A stretch of DNA of 64,000 nt from Ruminococcus sp. (GTDB lineage: Bacteria; Bacillota; Clostridia; Oscillospirales; Acutalibacteraceae). The notes below the pieces were generated by a model, which was given only the letters and a program-made list of their open reading frames with translations, made no database searches and was not told the DNA's origin. The stretch lies in assembly GCA_022510955.1 (NCBI GenBank), contig JAFLSM010000003.1:7877-71876 (forward strand). The letters run 5' to 3'. A program made the translations under genes and the position numbers. How positions within the stretch are numbered: position 1 is the first letter of the stretch; every line of letters starts with the position of its first letter. Shown one piece after another: positions 3,887 to 61,496 of this stretch.

Positions 3887-4789
3887 TTACATAATAATTT
3901 CATTGTCAAAATATTGTTCCTGAAAATGAACAGTATTATAAATTTCCTCTTTGCTGAAATTCAAATTTACATTTGTTCCAAACTGAACGGATGAGTTAAT
4001 ATTTTTGCAGGGTACAACCACCCATTTATTTTCAACATCATCATTTCGCTTGATAACTGCAACAACTCTGCCTATCATTTTTTGAATCGGCTTGTCAACA
4101 CCGAGAACATAAACATCCTGTTCCTCGCCGTCATCAGCAAAAATATTCTCTGCAAATCCGTAGTTAATAGGATAAATAATATCGCTGTGCTTTGGATGAA
4201 CCGAACCAAGCGGGCGGTCAATTTTTACGCTTACAACCGAGCCGATAATGCTGTTAATCTTCCTTTTTTCACCATCTGCAACCGAATAAATATAAGGCAT
4301 AATTCTTGCCCTTTGGCAGTCAACATAGTCGTCTTTCATTACAAAATCAAATATATCCTCAGTCTTAACCCAACAGTAATCAACTGTTTCGCCTTTTTGA
4401 AAAACAATCGTGTCTTTATTACAGTCAACTGTACAGACAAATCCGCAATGAATACTTTGCGTATCATCATAGCAAATACTGTAAATCGGTGAAAACTCAT
4501 TACAAGCAATACCTGTTTCCTCAAACAGCTCTCTGACAGCACCTTCAAGTGCAGTTTCACCTTTTTGCACAGCACCGCCTGCACTAATCTCCCAAAATCC
4601 GCCGTAGTTTTTCTTGCGAAAATCTCTTTGCATTGCAAGAAAACTACCGTCTTTATGCCTTATTACAACCTCGGCAACTAAATGATACATCCCGTCAGGA
4701 ATAAATTCTCCTCGAATTAATGTATCGTTAAGTCTTTTTCCTTTGCAATCATACGCATCCCAGACCTCTTTTGCTTGGAAACTATCCAT
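3887..4789 (-). CDS. NUDIX hydrolase fused to a C-terminal inorganic-pyrophosphatase-like domain
   Basis: Nudix box GGAVQKGETALEGAVRELFEETG; C-terminal IDRPLGSVHP..YPINYGF...DGEEQDVYVLG resembles the short clostridial PPase-like family. Confidence 0.75.
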   Translation of the reverse strand: MDSFQAKEVWDAYDCKGKRLNDTLIRGEFIPDGMYHLVAEVVIRHKDGSFLAMQRDFRKKNYGGFWEISAGGAVQKGETALEGAVRELFEETGIACNEFSPIYSICYDDTQSIHCGFVCTVDCNKDTIVFQKGETVDYCWVKTEDIFDFVMKDDYVDCQRARIMPYIYSVADGEKRKINSIIGSVVSVKIDRPLGSVHPKHSDIIYPINYGFAENIFADDGEEQDVYVLGVDKPIQKMIGRVVAVIKRNDDVENKWVVVPCKNINSSVQFGTNVNLNFSKEEIYNTVHFQEQYFDNEIIM

Positions 4790-5730: not shown

Positions 5731-6462
5731 TTAATAATAATTATAATAATCATACGGATCGAAAAAATAGTCGCCGTTCATTAGCTTAAAAATATAGATA
5801 ATCATTGAAAGAATTGAGAACAAAATTCCCACTGATGACAAAATTATACCCGCAATCGCCATCCCCTTACCGTCTTCATCTCTTTTCAAAGAAACAATGC
5901 CGAGTACTAATCCTGTAATTGATGTAAACAGTGTTAAAAACCAAAAACAGCAAGAACCCAAAGTAGAGCAAATACCCAAAATCATAGAAGCAATGGCAAA
6001 TCCCTTTGGCTTTTCCTGAAAATTATATATAGGATATTGCTGATTATAATACGGAGCATTGTACTGCTGTGGCGGATTGTATTCTCTGTACTGATTGTTC
6101 ATATTATTCTGAACATACGGAGATTGATTATATGTACCGCCATACGGATTATTTTGATTGTACTGCTGTTGTTGGTTATAATCAAAATACGAATTATTTG
6201 ACTGCGGTATATTATTATCATAAAATCCCTGCTGATTTACATTCTGCTGTGGTTGATAATAGCTGTTAGCATTGTTCTGCTCATAAACACTTTGCTGTGG
6301 CACACTTTCCTGAATATTTTCAGCCTGCGGCTGATTATAAGGAGCATACAAATCCGCCTGATTTATTTGCGGTTCCTGCTGTGCAACATTCTGTATAACA
6401 TTTGCATTGTTGTTAAAGTCAATGTTTTGATTTTCATTAAAGTTGTTATTGAATTCGTCCAT
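5731..6462 (-). CDS. DUF4190-like membrane protein with long N/Q/Y/P-rich N-terminus
   Basis: GFAIASMILGICS...GLVLGIVSL...GMAIAGIILS; ~150-aa low-complexity N-terminal region. Confidence 0.75.
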   Translation of the reverse strand: MDEFNNNFNENQNIDFNNNANVIQNVAQQEPQINQADLYAPYNQPQAENIQESVPQQSVYEQNNANSYYQPQQNVNQQGFYDNNIPQSNNSYFDYNQQQQYNQNNPYGGTYNQSPYVQNNMNNQYREYNPPQQYNAPYYNQQYPIYNFQEKPKGFAIASMILGICSTLGSCCFWFLTLFTSITGLVLGIVSLKRDEDGKGMAIAGIILSSVGILFSILSMIIYIFKLMNGDYFFDPYDYYNYY

Positions 6463-17018: not shown

Positions 17019-17711
17019 ATGATTGCAGACAATGTTAAAGTCAGCATTTTTGGCAAAATCAGCAACAGTCTTTATTATGCCAAAATTCAAGCTAACGGAC
17101 AAAATAAAAGTGCATATGTAATTTCTCGCAAGCAAATTAGAGATTATTTTGACGGCATTGTAGTTGCTGTTGCCGAATTTGATGGGCTTGATGAGGAAAG
17201 AAGCATTGTTGCACCATATGGTGAGATTTTCTATGAACCCGAGATAAGAAATCTGCTTTTAAAACTAAAAAATATCAGTCTTAAATCAATCAACTGTCTT
17301 TACGAAAAATCATGCGGTGCGATTATTTTTCATAAAACAAAGCAGAACACAAAAGTTTTGCTTGTCAAAAACAACAGTGGCAGATATTGGAGCTTTCCTA
17401 AAGGACACATTGAGGATGGCGAAAACGAGCAACAAACTGCAATTCGAGAAATCAAGGAAGAAACAGGACTTGATGTTACAATCTTTGATAATTTCAGAGA
17501 AATTAGTGAATACTGCCCGTTTGGAAAAATAAGAAAAAGAGTTGTATTCTTTCTTGCCCAGGCTTTTACCGACAATGTAAAAATCCAAGAGGAAGAGATT
17601 GACAGCTACATTTGGGTTGACCTCCAACAAGCACGCAAAATGTGTGTGTATGATAATGACTTGCGAATTATCGACAAAGCCGAAACCGCAATTCACTTAA
17701 TGCGAAATTGA
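17019..17711 (+). CDS. NUDIX hydrolase (Ap4A-hydrolase-like) with a degenerate N-terminal PPase-like domain
   Basis: EKSCGAII...WSFPKGHIEDGENEQQTAIREIKEETG; SD AAAGGAGG. Confidence 0.8.
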   Translation: MIADNVKVSIFGKISNSLYYAKIQANGQNKSAYVISRKQIRDYFDGIVVAVAEFDGLDEERSIVAPYGEIFYEPEIRNLLLKLKNISLKSINCLYEKSCGAIIFHKTKQNTKVLLVKNNSGRYWSFPKGHIEDGENEQQTAIREIKEETGLDVTIFDNFREISEYCPFGKIRKRVVFFLAQAFTDNVKIQEEEIDSYIWVDLQQARKMCVYDNDLRIIDKAETAIHLMRN

Positions 17712-26883: not shown

Positions 26884-26999
26884 GTTGGTGTTGATGACGC
26901 TGAGGGTCCACCTGTTCCCATACCGAACACAGAAGTTAAGCTCAGTGGTGCCGAAAATACTTGGCTGGAGACGGCCTGGAAAAATAGGGAGATGCCAAC
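26884..26999 (+). rRNA. rrf: 5S ribosomal RNA (stand-alone copy)
   Basis: 116 nt; terminal helix GTTGGTG/TGCCAAC; conserved CCACCTGTTCCCATACCGAACACAGAAGTTAAGCTC. Confidence 0.95.
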
Positions 27000-27008
27000 A
27001 CTCAAAGT

Positions 27009-27036: not shown

Positions 27037-27072
27037 ATGCCTAAAAAATTTCAGCTTACGCATAATAGTTAT

Positions 27073-27230
27073 TTATGATGTTTACCCATCAACAGAAGTA
27101 AATCTTTGGGGTGACAGTGGTAACTTTATTACTCACTAATAAAACACTTATAAATAATTAAAAATTTTAAATAGTGAATTATGATGTTTACCATTAATCG
27201 GAAGTTTATCTTCGGGTTACAACGGTCACA
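27073..27230 (+). ncRNA. Tandem pair of a ~52-nt structured motif (candidate cis-regulatory RNA) upstream of fkbM
   Basis: Two copies (27073-27124, 27179-27230): TTATGATGTTTACC..GAAG-N5-CTTY-GGG..ACA..GGTMAC with compensatory stem changes. Confidence 0.45.
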
Positions 27231-27278: not shown

Positions 27279-28346
27279 ATGACAAATATAATCTCAATTT
27301 TAAAAAATGAACAGAGTGTGTGGAAAAATCTTCAAAACAGCGAAAAACCGATTGTCCTCTACGGAATGGGCGACGGCGCTGACAAGGTACTTTCTGCATT
27401 TGAAAAATATAATATAAAAGTTAGCGGAGTAATGGCAAGCGACGACTTTGTTCGTGGTCAAAGTTTTCACGGCTTCACCGTAAAAAAAGAAAGTGTACTG
27501 GAGCAGGAGCTTGGTGACTTTACGGTTGCACTCTGCTTTGCAAGCCAGCTCTCAGAAGTTATGGACTATATCAAGTCAGTTGCAAACCGTCACAGCACTT
27601 TAGTTCCGTCTGTGCCTGTATTCGGCAATGTGTTGTTCGATGATGACTTTATCAAGCAGAATAAATCCGATATTGAAAATGCGTACAATCTGCTTGCAGA
27701 TGATTTGTCACGCAAGGTATATGAAAATGTACTGCTTTTCTATTATACAGGCAAAATTGAACTGCTCGATGAAATTACAACCGACAAGGACGAAGCTTTC
27801 AATAACATTCTAAAGTTGGGCAGCAACGAAACATATGTTGACCTCGGTGCATATAACGGAGATACGATTAACGAGTTTTTGTATTATGCAGGCAGTAATT
27901 ACCGCAAAATTATAGCCTTTGAGCCAAATGAAAAGAATTTCAGGAAATTGAGGGCTAACTGTATTGATATGCAAAACATTGATTTGTGGCAGCTTGGTGC
28001 ATATAACAAAAACACAATTCTGGAATTCAACAACAAGGCAGGAAGAAACAGTGCAATTTGCAGTAATGGCACAAAAACTCAAGTTGCCGCTGTTGACACA
28101 ATTTTATGCGGAATTGCCGCAAGCTATATAAAAGCCGATGTCGAGGGCGCTGATTTTGAAACGCTTGAGGGTATGAAAAATACGCTGAAAAATTTTAAAC
28201 CAAAGCTAAACTTTTCAGCGTATCATAGATTTGAAGATATTTTCAGACTTGCTCTGTATATTAACAAGCTTAATCCAAGCTATAAAATTTATCTGCGTCA
28301 TCATCCCTACATTCCTGCGTGGGACACAAATTTATACTGTGTTTAA
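27279..28346 (+). CDS. FkbM-family SAM-dependent methyltransferase
   Basis: YVDLGAYNGDT, IAFEPN, YIKADVEGAD, FSAYHRFED, YLRHH. Confidence 0.9.
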   Translation: MTNIISILKNEQSVWKNLQNSEKPIVLYGMGDGADKVLSAFEKYNIKVSGVMASDDFVRGQSFHGFTVKKESVLEQELGDFTVALCFASQLSEVMDYIKSVANRHSTLVPSVPVFGNVLFDDDFIKQNKSDIENAYNLLADDLSRKVYENVLLFYYTGKIELLDEITTDKDEAFNNILKLGSNETYVDLGAYNGDTINEFLYYAGSNYRKIIAFEPNEKNFRKLRANCIDMQNIDLWQLGAYNKNTILEFNNKAGRNSAICSNGTKTQVAAVDTILCGIAASYIKADVEGADFETLEGMKNTLKNFKPKLNFSAYHRFEDIFRLALYINKLNPSYKIYLRHHPYIPAWDTNLYCV

Positions 28347-28361
28347 AAAGCCTATTGTAAG

Positions 28362-28399
28362 AAACATAGCCGTTTCCCATTATCGGAACGGCTATGTTT
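28362..28399. terminator. Hairpin terminator between fkbM and the convergent islet gene
   Basis: AAACATAGCCGTT-N12-AACGGCTATGTTT. Confidence 0.75.
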
Positions 28400-28403
28400 A
28401 CTA

Positions 28404-28877
28404 TTAGATAAACTGCATTATGTTTCTTATTTCTTCAATTATACAATTTATATCATCTCGCTCTTTAAGCAGTAAATTAAACTCGTTGTTTTTACTTTTG
28501 AATAATTCGTCCAATTTCCTATATTTCTTTTTAATAAATGACTGTCTAATTAAAACACCAACCGCTATAGTGAGCAAAATCAAACCTACAGGAAGCACAG
28601 AAACAAAGAAAATTCCTGTTATTGTACATATTACTCCCAATAATATAATGCCTAAATTATTAAAATCCTCATTCATATAACACATACGTTTGAGGGAATT
28701 AATATGTAGTTCTAAAGTACGAATTTCTCCTTTTATTACTTTTATCTTACCATCAATCTGATATTTTTTACTAATCAAAGAACAAAACTCATCATTCATA
28801 ATTTTTATTTTTTCTGTATCAAAGTCAAAATTAATATTCTCTTCACAATTTCTGCATTTACTTTTAATAAGCGTCAC
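28404..28877 (-). CDS. Hypothetical protein: N-terminal CxxC, coiled coil, 2 TM helices, coiled coil
   Basis: GTG start 7 nt after GGAG; KCRNC; hydrophobic LGIILLGVICTITGIFFVSVLPVGLILLTIAVGVLI. Confidence 0.7.
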   Translation of the reverse strand: MTLIKSKCRNCEENINFDFDTEKIKIMNDEFCSLISKKYQIDGKIKVIKGEIRTLELHINSLKRMCYMNEDFNNLGIILLGVICTITGIFFVSVLPVGLILLTIAVGVLIRQSFIKKKYRKLDELFKSKNNEFNLLLKERDDINCIIEEIRNIMQFI

Positions 28878-28918
28878 AAAACCACTCCACAAAAATAAAT
28901 TTGACAAATTCTTTTAAA

Positions 28919-28954
28919 ATTATATAACAATCTACAGTTGTTGTCAATGACAAC
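28919..28954 (-). promoter_or_regulatory. Perfect SigA promoter overlapped by dyad operators
   Basis: TTGACA-17 bp-TATAAT (28947 to 28919); dyads AACAA-N7-TTGTT in the spacer and GTTGTCA-A-TGACAAC (28940-28954) over the -35. Confidence 0.85.
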
Positions 28955-29021
28955 TAATAAGATTTTTATTTAACACTCATAAGTTGTTACTATTAGTATA
29001 GATTAGTAACGGGGTGAGTAA

Positions 29022-29357
29022 ATGCTAAAAAATTTGAAATTGTTACGCCTTCAACACAAAATAAGTCAACAACAGCTTGCAGATATTATCGGCGTAAGTC
29101 AGCAATCTGTAAATAAATATGAAAATCACGACACCGAGCCTGACATTAGAACTTTGATTGCTCTATCGGATTATTTTAATACCTCTATCGATTATTTAGT
29201 AGGTAATACTGATATCAATCATAAAATTGAACATCTTAATAAATGTGATTTAAATGATGAAGAAACCGCGTTTGTCAACGACTTTCGCAAGCTATCGCCC
29301 AAAGAAAAAGAGAGCGTAAAATTTATTATAAGTAATTATCTTGAAAAAATGGACTGA
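29022..29357 (+). CDS. XRE/Cro-C1 family HTH transcriptional regulator
   Basis: LKLLRLQHKISQQQLADIIGVSQQSVNKYEN...EPDIRTLIALSDYFNTSIDYLVG. Confidence 0.93.
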   Translation: MLKNLKLLRLQHKISQQQLADIIGVSQQSVNKYENHDTEPDIRTLIALSDYFNTSIDYLVGNTDINHKIEHLNKCDLNDEETAFVNDFRKLSPKEKESVKFIISNYLEKMD

Positions 29358-29377
29358 TGTAAAAATACATCAGTCCA
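29350..29377 (+). terminator. Hairpin after the XRE gene
   Basis: TGGACTGATGTA-AAAA-TACATCAGTCCA. Confidence 0.7.
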
Positions 29378-29436
29378 AAATTTTATTTATACTTTTTATT
29401 GATTTTATCTGATTGGGACACAAATTTATACTGTGT

Positions 29437-30105
29437 TTAATGTTTGCCGTACTCGCTTAAAATGTCGTCAATTTCTGCTTCATTTACAGCTGTGCGTCTG
29501 TCAATATCAGATAAATATTTATCATAATCGAAGTCGTCATAATCATCAGAACTTTTGTCCGCTGTCTTTGCGGAGTATGTGCTGTGTGTATCGGATGACT
29601 GTTTTGCCAAAGGTTGCTTATTTGTGGTAGCCTTTTTTGCTGTGTGCCTGTCGCCTGTTGTCAAGCCATCAAGCTCAGACATTCTTTCACGCTCACGCTC
29701 ATCTCTGCGTTTTGCTTCAAGCAACATTTCCTCTGCTTCTGCTTTTTCCTGCTCTTCACGCTCACGGCGTTTATCACCAAGGGCAATGTCGCCGACAAAC
29801 AAGCCGAACATACCTGCAACAAGATATACTGCAAGCAAAAGTATGCTCGCAAGGTTGATTCCGCCATAATAAAGGAACATACTCGGCAAAAAGAAGATAG
29901 GAGCAATCAGCGAAAACAAAAAGTCAAGTCCGTATTTCGAGCAATAAATTGCTCCTGCAATCGCTGCTGTCGAAGGAAAAACAAAGTACAAAGCAATTCC
30001 TGCAAAGTTTTTAAGTGCATCATTTCTGAAAAAAAGCGGGACTATAAGATACACTGCAAAAATCACAACGCCGTATGGCAAATATTTCTTGACCATATCT
30101 TTCAT
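29437..30105 (-). CDS. Hypothetical membrane protein (4 TM plus charged cytoplasmic tail)
   Basis: SD GGAGG; N-terminal TM bundle, then an E/R/K-rich coil and a D/Y-rich tail. Confidence 0.75.
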   Translation of the reverse strand: MKDMVKKYLPYGVVIFAVYLIVPLFFRNDALKNFAGIALYFVFPSTAAIAGAIYCSKYGLDFLFSLIAPIFFLPSMFLYYGGINLASILLLAVYLVAGMFGLFVGDIALGDKRREREEQEKAEAEEMLLEAKRRDERERERMSELDGLTTGDRHTAKKATTNKQPLAKQSSDTHSTYSAKTADKSSDDYDDFDYDKYLSDIDRRTAVNEAEIDDILSEYGKH

Positions 30106-45556: not shown

Positions 45557-46039
45557 ATGATAGTCATGGATGAAAATGGAAACGAACTGATTGACATTAT
45601 CAAAATTGGTGAAAATGAAATTGATAATTACTCACCTGTCAATCACGCTTTATTGGTTGTTAAAATAGATGATGATTACCTTTTTGGGTGGAATCACTTC
45701 AGAAAAAGCTGGGAAATTTTCGGCGGTTGCATTGAGAACGGCGAAGGTGCTAAACAATGCATTATTCGAGAGGCAAACGAGGAACTTGGGCTTGATAATG
45801 CCGATGTTACCTTTATTGGACTGATGAAGTACAAAAAGGTAACGGATTATTTTAATCCGAATCCGCACATAGAATACGGCGGATTATACGGAATAACTTT
45901 GCAAAAATCAAAGCTTAATTCAATCAGAAATCACAGAAAAGACAGAGCTGAAATTGAAAAACTTTCGCTTTACAGTAATATAGCTGACAGAGAAAACATA
46001 TCAATTATCGCTGAAAAACTGTTAGAATATTGGCAATAG
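45557..46039 (+). CDS. NUDIX hydrolase
   Basis: WEIFGGCIENGEGAKQCIIREANEELG Nudix box. Confidence 0.85.
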   Translation: MIVMDENGNELIDIIKIGENEIDNYSPVNHALLVVKIDDDYLFGWNHFRKSWEIFGGCIENGEGAKQCIIREANEELGLDNADVTFIGLMKYKKVTDYFNPNPHIEYGGLYGITLQKSKLNSIRNHRKDRAEIEKLSLYSNIADRENISIIAEKLLEYWQ

Positions 46040-58988: not shown

Positions 58989-59558
58989 TCAAACCCTTTC
59001 AATAAAGTTTCTAATCATCTGCATTCCGTGTGAGGTAAGGATTGATTCAGGGTGAAACTGCAATCCGTAAATTTCATAATCCCTATGTTTAACGCCCATA
59101 ACCTCTCCCATATTATCTTCAGCAACAACAATAAGTTCCTGCGGAATTGTGTCACGCTTTGCAATAAGTGAGTGGTATCTTGCGCCCTCAACAACCTTTG
59201 GCATATCGGCAAAAATTTTACATTCTGTATCAACTTTAATATCGCTTTTCTTGCCGTGCATTAACTTTACTGCATGTGTGATTTGTGCACCAAACACCTC
59301 GCAAATTGCCTGATGACCGAGGCACACACCCAAAATAGGATATTCGCCCTTAAGCTCTCTTATAACATCCTCGCACACACCTGCATTCTTCGGATAACCG
59401 GGACCCGGGGAAAGTATTATGTGACTGGGATTTAAATTTCTGATTTCATCAACGGTAATTTCATCATTTCTAACAACCAAAATATCGGGAGTTACACTGC
59501 CCACAAACTGAACAAGATTGTAGGTAAAGCTGTCGTAATTGTCAATAAAAAGTATCAT
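58989..59558 (-). CDS. trpG: Anthranilate synthase component II (glutamine amidotransferase)
   Basis: IDNYDSFTYNL, SPGPG, GVCLGHQ, ARYHSL, QFHPESI. Confidence 0.96.
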   Translation of the reverse strand: MILFIDNYDSFTYNLVQFVGSVTPDILVVRNDEITVDEIRNLNPSHIILSPGPGYPKNAGVCEDVIRELKGEYPILGVCLGHQAICEVFGAQITHAVKLMHGKKSDIKVDTECKIFADMPKVVEGARYHSLIAKRDTIPQELIVVAEDNMGEVMGVKHRDYEIYGLQFHPESILTSHGMQMIRNFIERV

Positions 59559-61015
59559 AACTTGTCAACCTCCCCTGCATTTTTAACTGCGTTCATAACT
59601 GCAAGAGCCTTGTTGTAGGTTTCCATATATTCGCTTTCAGGAACGCTGTCTGCTACAATACCTGCGCCTGCCTGAACATACACCTTTCCGCCTGTTTTAA
59701 CAGCCATACGGATTGCAATACAGGTGCAAAGATTGCCGTTGAAGTCAGCATATCCGAGTGCACCACCGTATACACCGCGGGGAGTTTTTTCAAGCTCTTC
59801 AATAATTTCACACGCTCTTATCTTTGGCGCACCCGACAATGTGCCTGCCGGCAAGACTGCCTCTACTGCACTTAAAGCGTCAAGGTCGTCTCTGATTTCG
59901 CCCTCAACCTCACTGCAAATGTGCATAATTTTTGAAAAGCGCAAAACTTTTTGATATTCAGTTACCTTTACTGAACCGAACTTAGCAATTCTGCCGATAT
60001 CGTTTCTTCCGAGGTCAACAAGCATATTATGCTCTGCAAGCTCTTTTTCATCCTGCATAAGCTCTTTGGCAAGTGCGTCGTCCTCTTCCTTTGTCTTTCC
60101 TCTCGGACGGGAGCCTGCAATAGGAAATGTGTTAAGAACGCCGTCCTGAAGCTTTACAAGAGTTTCGGGTGAGGTACTGATAATCTCATCGCCTTCAATA
60201 TTCATATACACCATATATGGAGAAGGATTTGTCACACGCAAAACTCTGTATGCGTTTATCAGCGAACCTTTATAGTCAGCCTCAAAACGCCTTGAAACAA
60301 CGCATTGGAAGATATCGCCGTCAAAAATATATTCCTTGGTTTTTTCAACCATATCGCAAAATTCTTCTTTGGTGTAGGTACTTGAAAATTCAACATTTTC
60401 ATCGCTCTCAAGCTTTGGCAGAGGAGAGGCATCAGTGATTATGGAAATAATTTCGTTTATATCCGACTTTGCTTTTTCGTACTGACGCTCTACATCATAA
60501 GTTTTCATATTAGCAACGACAATCAGTTTTTGCTTTAAATGGTCATAAGCAATCACCTTGTCAAACATCATTAAATCAAAATCGTTTGTTTCTCCCCTTT
60601 TGAGTTTTAGAACAGGCTCTGCAACTGCAATCATCGCATAGCCATAGTAACCCATAAGTCCGCCTGTAAACGGAGGAAGGTCATCAAAATGCGGAGTTTT
60701 ATAATCGGCAAGATATTCTCGCAAGGCATCATAAGGCTTGTCGGTTTTTACAATTCTTGCGCCCTCGCCCGTAACGGTGAGCGTACCGTCTTTATATGCA
60801 AGGCGTGATTTAGGATTAAAGCCGAGATATGAGTATCTTCCCCACTTTTCACCACCCTCAATGCTTTCAAGCAGGAAAAATTTGTCTGATTTTTGAGCAA
60901 TTTTTCTGAGTAATGTAATTGGAGTAACAACATCGGCATAAATCTCTTTGCAAACAGGGATTACGCTGTATTTGTCCTTCAAACTCAGAATCTCATCAAA
61001 TGACGGTTTAATCAT
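59555..61015 (-). CDS. trpE: Anthranilate synthase component I
   Basis: LLESIEGGEKWGRYS, NPSPYM, AEHNMLVDLGRND, LPAGTLSGAPK, QAGAGIVADS. Confidence 0.97.
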   Translation of the reverse strand: MIKPSFDEILSLKDKYSVIPVCKEIYADVVTPITLLRKIAQKSDKFFLLESIEGGEKWGRYSYLGFNPKSRLAYKDGTLTVTGEGARIVKTDKPYDALREYLADYKTPHFDDLPPFTGGLMGYYGYAMIAVAEPVLKLKRGETNDFDLMMFDKVIAYDHLKQKLIVVANMKTYDVERQYEKAKSDINEIISIITDASPLPKLESDENVEFSSTYTKEEFCDMVEKTKEYIFDGDIFQCVVSRRFEADYKGSLINAYRVLRVTNPSPYMVYMNIEGDEIISTSPETLVKLQDGVLNTFPIAGSRPRGKTKEEDDALAKELMQDEKELAEHNMLVDLGRNDIGRIAKFGSVKVTEYQKVLRFSKIMHICSEVEGEIRDDLDALSAVEAVLPAGTLSGAPKIRACEIIEELEKTPRGVYGGALGYADFNGNLCTCIAIRMAVKTGGKVYVQAGAGIVADSVPESEYMETYNKALAVMNAVKNAGEVDKL

Positions 61016-61054
61016 TTTACACCAACCTTTCAAATTATTTTATATTTATACAAC

Positions 61055-61150: not shown

Positions 61151-61465
61151 AAAAAAAGCTTTTGTCCCAAAAAAGGGACAAAAGCCTGAATAAACAACTT
61201 CTGCGGTACCACCCAATTTGACGAATAATCGCCCGCTTAACAGCATACTGACATATGCCTCTCACTGTAACGGTTGAGCTCCGTCGAAAACTACTCGTAA
61301 AACATTTTTAACACACATCGCCTGTTACTGCAATCCTTATGAACTAAAAACTTTATACTTTCGGTTCGCCCTCACAAGTCCATTCACACAATCCTACACT
61401 ATCGGCTCACACCAACCGCCGACTCTCTGAAAGTTTCAGAAAATGCTACTACTCTTGTTCATAGG
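61151..61465 (-). promoter_or_regulatory. Tryptophan T-box riboswitch
   Basis: AG box AGAGAG, GGTGTGA, specifier GAA-TGG (Trp codon at 61380-61382), T-box AATTGGGTGGTACCGC (61203-61218), terminator GCTTTTGTCCC/GGGACAAAAGC + U7. Confidence 0.95.
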
Positions 61466-61496
61466 TTTAACATATTAATATTATTATATTAATATT

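Follow-up and report, generated by a model that had tools for sequence, protein, structure and literature searches.

It is poorly understood how bacterial chromosomes acquire small accessory units that carry no genes for their own mobility. The closest described process is insertion with long target duplication, in which compact, often low-GC restriction–modification (RM) units lacking mobility genes lie between copies of a duplicated, unique host sequence, having arrived by an unknown mechanism (PMC2853133). Such insertions of RM systems have gone without a mechanistic explanation since 2000. Here, we analyze a 64,000-nt stretch of the Ruminococcus sp. contig JAFLSM010000003.1 (the window, whose positions serve as coordinates throughout), and we focus on a short islet at the 3′ end of fkbM, a gene encoding an FkbM-family methyltransferase. 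The islet consists of an XRE-family repressor gene and, divergent from it, a gene encoding an orphan 157-aa membrane protein, and the pair is bounded by a 27-bp direct repeat. Our preferred reading, which we hold at about even confidence, is that the islet represents a two-gene cassette, self-contained and non-autonomous, whose insertion at a gene 3′ end duplicated 27 bp of the target, and not the stump of an integrase element. The locus makes the problem of entry tractable because one repressor together with its operator marks a family of such units, because filled and empty alleles exist naturally, and because the repeats are perfect or decayed depending on the lineage.

The likeness to the RM units is close. 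Both are low-GC, self-regulating units that possess no integrase or transposase, the duplication overlaps a gene 3′ end here and often does so among the RM units (PMC2853133), and in both cases the insertion is detected by comparing filled with empty sites, as in the work of Nobusato, Furuta, and Kobayashi. Moreover, the repeat is present as a single copy in an empty relative (locus L004), and no mobility gene lies in or beside the insert. Two parts of the definition of Furuta et al. do not apply, namely a duplication of >30 bp (here, 27 bp perfect and 32 bp with two mismatches) and an RM cargo. The duplications of RM units are 30 bp or longer (46 to ~400 bp) and variable, whereas the duplication here is 27 bp, and ~27–30 bp in related cassettes. 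The cargo also differs, being an XRE repressor plus a membrane protein, and several cassettes share one regulator and operator. We regard the islet as a new variant of a described but unexplained kind of insertion, and its oddities are that a length of ~27 bp recurs at unrelated sites and that the repeats evolve in concert.

Other known systems share some of these features. Cis-mobilizable elements (CIMEs) keep their attL and attR sites but have lost the genes for integration and transfer (PMC5704250). The islet is similar in having attL/attR-like repeats at a gene 3′ end and no mobility genes, so that a recombinase would be needed in trans. CIMEs, however, are decayed integrative and conjugative elements (ICEs) or integrative and mobilizable elements (IMEs) spanning several kilobases and sharing their sites with intact relatives, whereas the islet is 1.1 kb long and its kind recurs at unrelated sites; no intact ICE or IME with the same att site was found in the collections searched. 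Nor does a recombinase lie inside the repeats, as it does in an integrative element. Finally, the minimal mobile elements of Neisseria, which spread by flanking homology, offer a likeness of another sort (PMC1797815).

The insertion and its empty sites

The fkbM gene (27279..28346, plus strand) encodes a 355-aa protein (PF05050, 3.7e-11; NCBIfam fkbM_fam), and its final 27 bp, host sequence specifying WDTNLYCV and the stop codon, are the left, attL-like copy of the repeat (28320..28346). The right, attR-like copy occupies 29414..29440. An earlier examination of the window that used its letters and no database (the sequence-only reading) had pointed to this perfect duplication of the fkbM 3′ end, and the count bears it out. 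Specifically, TGGGACACAAATTTATACTGTGTTTAA, 27 bp in length, has two exact copies in the window, a third copy does not appear there even when three mismatches are allowed, and the chance expectation from shuffled sequences is 0. If two mismatches are tolerated, the repeat grows to 32 bp (CTGcgTGGG / CTGatTGGG). Between the copies lies the inserted cassette (28347..29413; 1,067 bp), which is absent from relatives with empty sites. Its interior has a GC content of 25–31% versus ~40% in the flanks, and the only two open reading frames (ORFs) between the repeats are those of the XRE gene and the divergent 157-aa gene. On the right flank, the final bases of the repeat give a convergent host gene its stop codon. 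This gene (29437..30105, minus strand) encodes a 222-aa membrane protein with an acidic tail, and its orthologues abut fkbM in empty sites. Its stop codon (29437–29439) shares 2 nt with the duplicated TAA, and thus the predicted empty site reads TTAA.

Empty sites, which the sequence-only reading had anticipated with overlapping stop codons, exist in six related species. Specifically, orthologues of fkbM with 67–89% identity are present in eight representative genomes, in six of which (L004, L006–L009, and L011) the convergent gene comes directly after fkbM; the other two have different neighbors. The stop codons at the six empty sites either overlap by 2 nt (TTAA or TTAG) or are separated by a gap of 0–3 nt. 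In these islet-free species, the fkbM 3′ end carries the same repeat sequence with species-level changes. When the window is aligned to L004 by BLAST, the two flanks overlap by exactly the 32-bp repeat, of which L004 has one copy and the window two. The islet is a genuine insertion at the junction of fkbM and the convergent gene, and the origin of the window repeat in the target is certain.

Filled sites occur at loci L001–L003, L012, and L013 and in the sequencing runs X1, X2, and X5. The window itself is identical to a Logan contig from SRR13619851, and rodent-gut metagenomes are among the runs that contain the locus or its close relatives. The islet is present in each of the five window-species samples that span the junction (the window, L003, X1, X2, and X5). 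The closest species, Ruminococcaceae bacterium UBA7075, has ~83% nucleotide identity to the window and is polymorphic: L004 is empty, while L012 (ERR13955626) and L013 (SRR10090052) are filled with a homologous islet, and their flanks are 99.2% and 94–96% identical to those of L004, respectively. Fixation of the islet in all relatives, which would have spoken against a mobile unit, is not what the six empty species and the polymorphic UBA7075 display. The L004 empty site is of the ancestral type (…TGCGTTTAA) and is no hybrid of the L012 and L013 repeats; therefore, L004 is not a recent excision product of the allele found in L012 and L013. In a separate observation on UBA7075, the comparison of L013:100–500 with L012 gives 8–19 substitutions per 100 bp in the 5′ third of fkbM and 0–4 in the remaining locus, islet included. 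This pattern indicates that fkbM has probably become mosaic through recombination within UBA7075.

No enzyme that could have carried out the insertion is encoded nearby. The two islet ORFs contain no recombinase domain detectable with Pfam or NCBIfam, and recombinase and transposase genes are missing from the entire window, in agreement with the absence first noticed in the letters. Rfam identifies no RNA family inside the islet. No larger element and no integrase were found at the fkbM 3′ end among 14 related loci, and the 27-bp repeat has no exact match in the Genome Taxonomy Database (GTDB) representatives or in IMG/VR. The search of other strains that had been advised thus yielded the empty sites and none of the larger elements. 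Terminal inverted repeats are likewise absent from the cassettes of the window, L013, L015, and L060, as are TGT...ACA ends; local alignment of each left end with the reverse complement of the right end scores 6–9, and the shuffle means are 7.7–9.1. The 5-bp dyad inside the repeat (ACACA-N9-TGTGT), which the sequence-only reading had noted, was considered as a recombinase core and dismissed: a dyad of this kind is present in 14% of random 27-mers from the window, and the sites of other species do not conserve it.

Age and concerted evolution of the repeats

The islet did not arrive recently. The synonymous divergence (dS) of the islet genes between the window and L012 amounts to 0.81 (membrane-protein gene) and 1.20 (XRE gene); in the flanks, it is 1.07 for fkbM, 0.98 for the gene of the 222-aa protein, and 0.79 for mgtE. 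Because the dS of the islet equals that of the flanks, the islet is as old as the split between the window species and its sister. Both islet genes are under purifying selection. In the same comparison, the XRE gene is strongly constrained, with a ratio of non-synonymous to synonymous divergence (dN/dS) of 0.06 and 87% aa identity, and the membrane protein evolves fast yet under constraint (dN/dS 0.41; 51% identity). Between the window and L003, the membrane protein has five differences, all of them non-synonymous and clustered directly before the first transmembrane (TM) segment, which are too few to claim positive selection.

The state of the repeats depends on the lineage. In the filled UBA7075 contigs, the two copies have decayed to 20/27 identical positions, as an old insertion predicts. 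In the window and in L003, they are identical at 27/27. At the rate of the sister lineage, ~5.5 differences would be expected, and the probability of finding none in the absence of homogenization is ~0.004. In run X1, which represents a more divergent strain, an identical G>A change is found at position 22 in each of the two copies (28341 and 29435), and the right copy has one further private change. Moreover, when the window is compared with L003, the divergence of the islet is 3.6-fold lower than that of its flanks (13/1067 versus 139/3159, p = 1.7e-7), and the difference also holds for non-coding positions (4/257 versus 29/432, p = 0.0015). The lower divergence of the islet is not seen for X1.

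These comparisons point to some process that homogenizes the repeats and that transferred a single islet haplotype across strains. It could be gene conversion together with homologous exchange, or else repeated excision and re-insertion. In our proposed mechanism, the identity of the repeats in the window species would be maintained either by gene conversion or by excision and re-insertion through an enzyme supplied in trans. That the repeats evolve in concert hints that recombination is ongoing in the window species.

The repressor, its cargo, and the cassette family

The XRE gene (29022..29357, plus strand) encodes a 111-aa protein composed of a helix-turn-helix (HTH) domain and a conserved 45-aa C-terminal part. 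It matches HTH_3 at 5.9e-18 (65.1 bits; cut-off 23) and PHROG 8 at 3e-22, and it has 921 relatives at <1e-10. Its relatives in the PDB include CylR2, the ICEBs1 regulator, and the P22 C2 and 434 repressors; a search of IMG/VR found no relatives. The top NCBIfam match is the RstR family (NF041951; 1e-17, profile positions 5–97 of 108), and the score of 64.4 bits does not reach the curated cut-off of 80 for family membership.

A control region of 144 bp separates the divergent genes. The cargo promoter within it (28947..28919, minus strand) is of the sigma-A type, TTGACA-17-TATAAT, and agrees with the consensus at 12/12 positions. Predicted half-sites for the repressor sit in and around the promoter spacer: the putative dyad operator AGTTGTTGTCAATGACAACT (28936..28955) overlaps the −35 hexamer, and an extra half-site, AAGTTGTTA, lies at ~28981–28989. 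Among 118 loci, the motif GTTnTTGTCAAnnACAAC occurs only in window-type islets, L015, and L060. The notion is that XRE dimers would occupy the GTTGT/ACAAC half-sites in and around the spacer and the −35 hexamer and so keep the membrane-protein gene silent. XRE most likely represses the cargo promoter, and it may also regulate its own expression. That the arrangement is a functional switch is supported by the conservation of the design across the family and by the XRE dN/dS of 0.06. A hairpin 3′ of the membrane-protein gene (28362..28399; 13-bp arms and a 12-nt loop), the stem of which is kept in L012 and L013, is likely the terminator of that gene. A bidirectional terminator hairpin with 12-bp arms, conserved in L012 and L013, lies 3′ of the XRE gene (29350..29377). 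The AT-rich interior with its own terminators, XRE gene, divergent gene, promoter, and dyad operator is therefore much as the sequence-only reading had portrayed it, and the promoter and operator are conserved in the family. A type II toxin–antitoxin module was considered and rejected on the ground that the XRE and cargo genes are divergent and do not form an operon.

The arrangement recalls phage lysogeny switches that have a superinfection-exclusion (Sie) gene, as well as toxic genes controlled by C proteins, in that an XRE/Cro-CI-type repressor is divergent from a strong promoter with dyad operators and a small membrane cargo. Unlike in those systems, no other phage genes are present here, the XRE family is chromosomal and has many unrelated envelope targets, and the 157-aa protein shows no homology to known Sie, abortive-infection (Abi), or holin proteins.

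The cargo gene (28404..28877, minus strand) has a GTG start codon, with GGAG 7 nt upstream. Its product consists, in order, of an N-terminal coiled-coil helix, a two-TM hairpin (~residues 76–116), and a C-terminal helix. The hydrophobic stretch is 41 residues long and is interrupted by VLPVG, and KKKYRK comes after the second TM segment. From the positive-inside distribution, both ends of the protein are predicted to be cytoplasmic. AlphaFold models a long helical hairpin (H21–89 / H95–156; pLDDT 71.7). The hydrophobic stretch and the predicted hairpin uphold the layout of coiled coil, two TM segments, and coiled coil proposed at the outset. The CxxC motif noticed at the same time is indeed present in the window protein, but it is missing from P0002, an orthologue with 52% identity, and for that reason a zinc ribbon was dropped as a feature of the family.

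Searches of a 5.8-billion-protein index, of 1.8 billion representatives (exhaustive HMMER), of JGI metagenomes, and of IMG/VR mark the protein as an orphan. Among the 1.8 billion representatives it has three relatives, every one of them at this locus, and no relatives were found in the JGI metagenomes or IMG/VR. PADLOC, Pfam, NCBIfam, and PDB sequence profiles yield no match, and PHROGs yields nothing significant (best E = 0.008, to a family of unknown function). Foldseek against the PDB and BFVD returns generic coiled coils only (E > 0.02), and thus the structural and defense searches that had been recommended gave no specific match.

What might such a protein do? In our model, once repression is lifted, the protein would insert as a hairpin with both termini inside, oligomerize via its cytoplasmic helices, and work at the membrane as a conditional effector, possibly a toxic or phage-excluding one. 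An accessory-cassette hairpin that is silenced, evolves fast, and presumably oligomerizes is compatible with a toxic, abortive-infection-like, or exclusion-like effector, and we take the orphan hairpin protein to be a candidate conditional membrane effector. The toxic or defensive reading itself we entertain tentatively, judging it a real possibility but the less probable side of the question. Toxicity is not implied, because elsewhere the XRE family controls very diverse surface proteins that look plainly non-toxic.

In all contexts examined, homologues of the XRE gene are divergent from a gene encoding an uncharacterized envelope protein and lie among housekeeping genes, and no integrase or phage genes were found near them. 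The partners include secreted multi-domain proteins, secreted Ig-like repeat proteins, zinc-ribbon–TM proteins, small TM proteins, and coiled-coil/two-TM proteins. A common control design recurs across L014–L109 (for example, L016:4849-5004 and L044:1804-1952): TTGACA, a 17-nt spacer containing ACAAC-N5-GTTGT, and TATAAT. The promoters in the family are consensus or near-consensus, with half-sites of the GTTGT type overlapping the −35 hexamer and one more upstream of the XRE gene. This design, with its consensus promoter, dyad in the spacer, and diverse membrane or surface cargo, is widespread in gut Clostridia and could serve as a tight switch.

Two observations concern cargo genes elsewhere in the family. 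At L016–L023, a 100%-identical XRE (P0087) stands beside a gene for a 469-aa surface protein that is intact or split depending on the sample; the split forms are 106/120 + 281/286 aa or 346 + 100 aa. This suggests frequent frameshifting, pseudogenization, or phase variation of the 469-aa cargo gene. In addition, relatives of the L060-type cargo adjoin the gene of a Type ISP restriction–modification enzyme (L117:2736-7446) and an IS21 (IstA/IstB) element (L118:1846-4037), surroundings that are variable and defense-island-like.

A gapped scan of ~60 loci for flanking repeats found four loci far above background (z = 8.7–15.9). The clearest case outside fkbM is L060, from a different organism, where a cassette of 28% GC is embedded in a genome of 51–54% GC. 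Its XRE is 57% identical to that of the window, and the two control regions can be aligned over ~100 nt. The cassette is flanked by a perfect 27/27 direct repeat, AAGGGCGACCTCTGCGGTCGCCCTGTT (z = 15.9), whose sequence is that of the terminator hairpin of the neighboring gene for a glycoside hydrolase of family 31 (GH31). The left repeat lies only 8 nt from the stop codon of the cargo gene, and the right repeat follows the XRE stop codon with 0 nt in between. In L015 (XRE identity 67%), a cassette of 28% GC is bounded by a ~30-bp terminator hairpin repeat that is identical at 27/31 positions, with a compensatory change in the stem. The hairpin repeat in L064 (23/25), which encloses a larger block containing an XRE gene, is plausible but weak. 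We infer that the L060 and L015 repeats, like the repeat in the window, derive from their targets. The cargo proteins of L015 (331 aa) and L060 (374 aa) match the 157-aa protein in layout, with a coiled coil, two TM segments, and a second coiled coil. Pairwise BLAST matched P0002 to the L060 cargo (E = 4e-6 without composition correction); this match was rejected as a sign of homology, as the comparison of profiles did not support it, and was kept as shared layout only. Candidate flanking repeats at L108, L053, and L045 were judged to be chance or unrelated, and L114–L116, which pair an XRE with a 379-aa cargo, have no flanking repeats.

Readings of the islet and other features of the window

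In the reading that we prefer, the cassette comprises the XRE repressor, the shared divergent control region, and one cargo gene, here encoding a coiled-coil/two-TM hairpin. It would have entered the junction of the two convergent genes and, in doing so, duplicated 27 bp of the fkbM 3′ end, before the window and sister species split; its presence or absence would still be segregating today. It would belong to a family whose members, defined by the same XRE and operator, are found in related Clostridia at differing 3′-end or terminator sites, and at least two other cassettes are likewise bounded by direct repeats, ~27–30 bp long and putatively drawn from the local sequence. Several points weigh against this reading. 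Most XRE-family loci in the gapped scan of ~60 loci are without flanking repeats, and the ~27-bp pattern rests on two perfect examples and one or two decayed ones. The repeats of L060 and L015 could be the cassettes' own twin terminators, and a clean L060 empty site was not recovered: related strains in runs X9 and X10 are without the cassette, and the DNA between their genes has diverged too far to align. Nor can the cargo proteins of different cassettes be shown to be homologous (hhalign probability 8.9%), and the toxic or protective role of the 157-aa protein is itself inferred from sequence. Among the five window-species samples, which are low-coverage contigs only, neither an excised circle nor an empty site was found. 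Finally, an islet of this age that is present in every window-species sample fits a fixed, immobile locus equally well.

A bolder version of the cassette reading is that the islet represents an undescribed class of minimal mobile cassettes, in which an XRE/consensus-promoter switch is coupled to one variable envelope gene. A host or helper enzyme acting in trans would make ~27-bp staggered cuts around a dyad at gene 3′ ends or terminators, leaving a duplication of fixed length without inverted repeats or att arms, and excision in some lineages would keep the repeats identical. If the ~27-bp length is constant, it would point to a specific enzyme. We nonetheless think this version unlikely. Modules that exploit Xer recombination (IMEXs) and the dif modules of Acinetobacter (mentioned in PMC10132070) are small, have no recombinase of their own, and use ~28-bp sites with dyad character. 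The islet XRE also resembles the RstR repressor family of phage CTX, over the full length and below the model cut-off. The sites of those modules are conserved XerC/XerD sites, whereas the repeats here are gene-end or terminator sequences that are wholly different between cassettes; the L060 repeat is not dif-like, and both it and the L015 repeat are GC-rich terminator hairpins with unrelated sequences. dif modules usually have inverted pdif sites at their boundaries. The window repeat can be divided as 11-6-10, with a seeming partial resemblance to a XerD arm. A Xer/dif-like reading is only a lead, and it is weakened because the repeats of different cassettes are unrelated in sequence.

Three other explanations deserve comparison with a self-contained cassette. 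The islet could be a CIME-like remnant, left when a tyrosine-recombinase element (a prophage, ICE, or IME) inserted in the fkbM 3′ end and was then deleted internally down to two genes and the attL and attR sites, which the integrase of a related element can still recombine in trans; the sequence-only reading had favored a satellite or remnant of this sort. With its 27-bp identity at the 3′ end of a gene and its restored stop codon, the site looks like a typical integrase att site, site-specific recombination would fit both the concerted repeats and an islet younger than its flanks between two strains, and the XRE protein resembles phage repressors (PHROG 8 and the RstR family). What counts against a remnant is that none of the 14 related loci has an integrase or any other element gene at the site, that IMG/VR and the GTDB representatives hold no exact match to the repeat and IMG/VR no relatives of XRE or cargo, and that cargo and XRE have co-diverged with the host for a dS of ~1 with no trace of other element genes. 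L060 leaves no room for arm sites next to its repeats, and the independent cassettes elsewhere hold these two genes only. Such recurrence of exactly two genes at unrelated sites argues against remnants, since deletions would not repeatedly retain just these. We consider a remnant improbable. Alternatively, the islet may be an ancient insertion that is now immobile, a local pair of regulator and membrane protein that spreads by homologous recombination in its flanks in the style of the minimal mobile elements documented in Neisseria (PMC1797815), with the repeat identity due to short-tract conversion or chance. The equal dS of islet and flanks, the five filled window-species samples, the sister repeats decayed to 20/27, the L004 empty site that is not a simple attL/attR hybrid, and the XRE homologues that accompany diverse envelope genes among housekeeping genes, mostly without repeats, all suit this explanation. 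It leaves unaccounted for, however, the origin of the 27-bp duplication and the equally long perfect repeat around the compositionally foreign L060 cassette, and the perfect identity and the G>A change shared by both copies need a homogenizing process. A tract of 27 bp is short for RecA-dependent conversion. An immobile locus is, in our judgment, possible but on the doubtful side.

The last alternative is a non-autonomous derivative of an insertion sequence (IS), comparable to a mobile insertion cassette or a miniature inverted-repeat transposable element (MITE), that was moved by a transposase making long duplications, such as one of the IS1202 subgroup or an IS1630-like one. Members of the IS1202 subgroup produce 27–28-bp direct repeats, and some have passenger genes (bioRxiv 10.1101/2022.12.17.520857). 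IS1630, as cited in PMC2853133, makes duplications of 19–26 bp and targets palindromes; in keeping with this explanation, two cassettes have repeats of exactly 27 bp, and two of the repeats are hairpins. The IS1202 subgroup differs from the islet in that its members encode a DDE transposase and carry terminal inverted repeats of 24–26 bp that have TGT ends. Such repeats and TGT...ACA ends are missing from all four cassettes, the coding sequence of L060 reaches the repeat, and the window encodes no transposase. Given the lack of inverted repeats in particular, we regard an IS-derived cassette as very improbable.

The remaining features of the window lie outside the islet. A solitary 5S rRNA gene (26884-27000, plus strand; Rfam RF00001, 84 bits) is located between a gene for a short-chain dehydrogenase/reductase (SDR) and fkbM, and the window contains no 16S or 23S rRNA genes and no tRNA genes. 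After the 5S gene come two direct repeats of 47 nt (27064-27110 and 27170-27216), 79% identical to each other. A T-box leader (61171-61471, minus strand; Rfam RF00230, 110 bits) precedes the trp operon (trpE, 59555-61033, onward) and represents ordinary tryptophan-tRNA-sensing regulation. Among housekeeping genes, the window also encodes a 243-aa DUF4190 membrane protein (5731-6462, minus strand), of a kind often fused to zinc ribbons. Finally, three separate NUDIX genes are present, at 3887-4789, 17019-17711, and 45557-46039.

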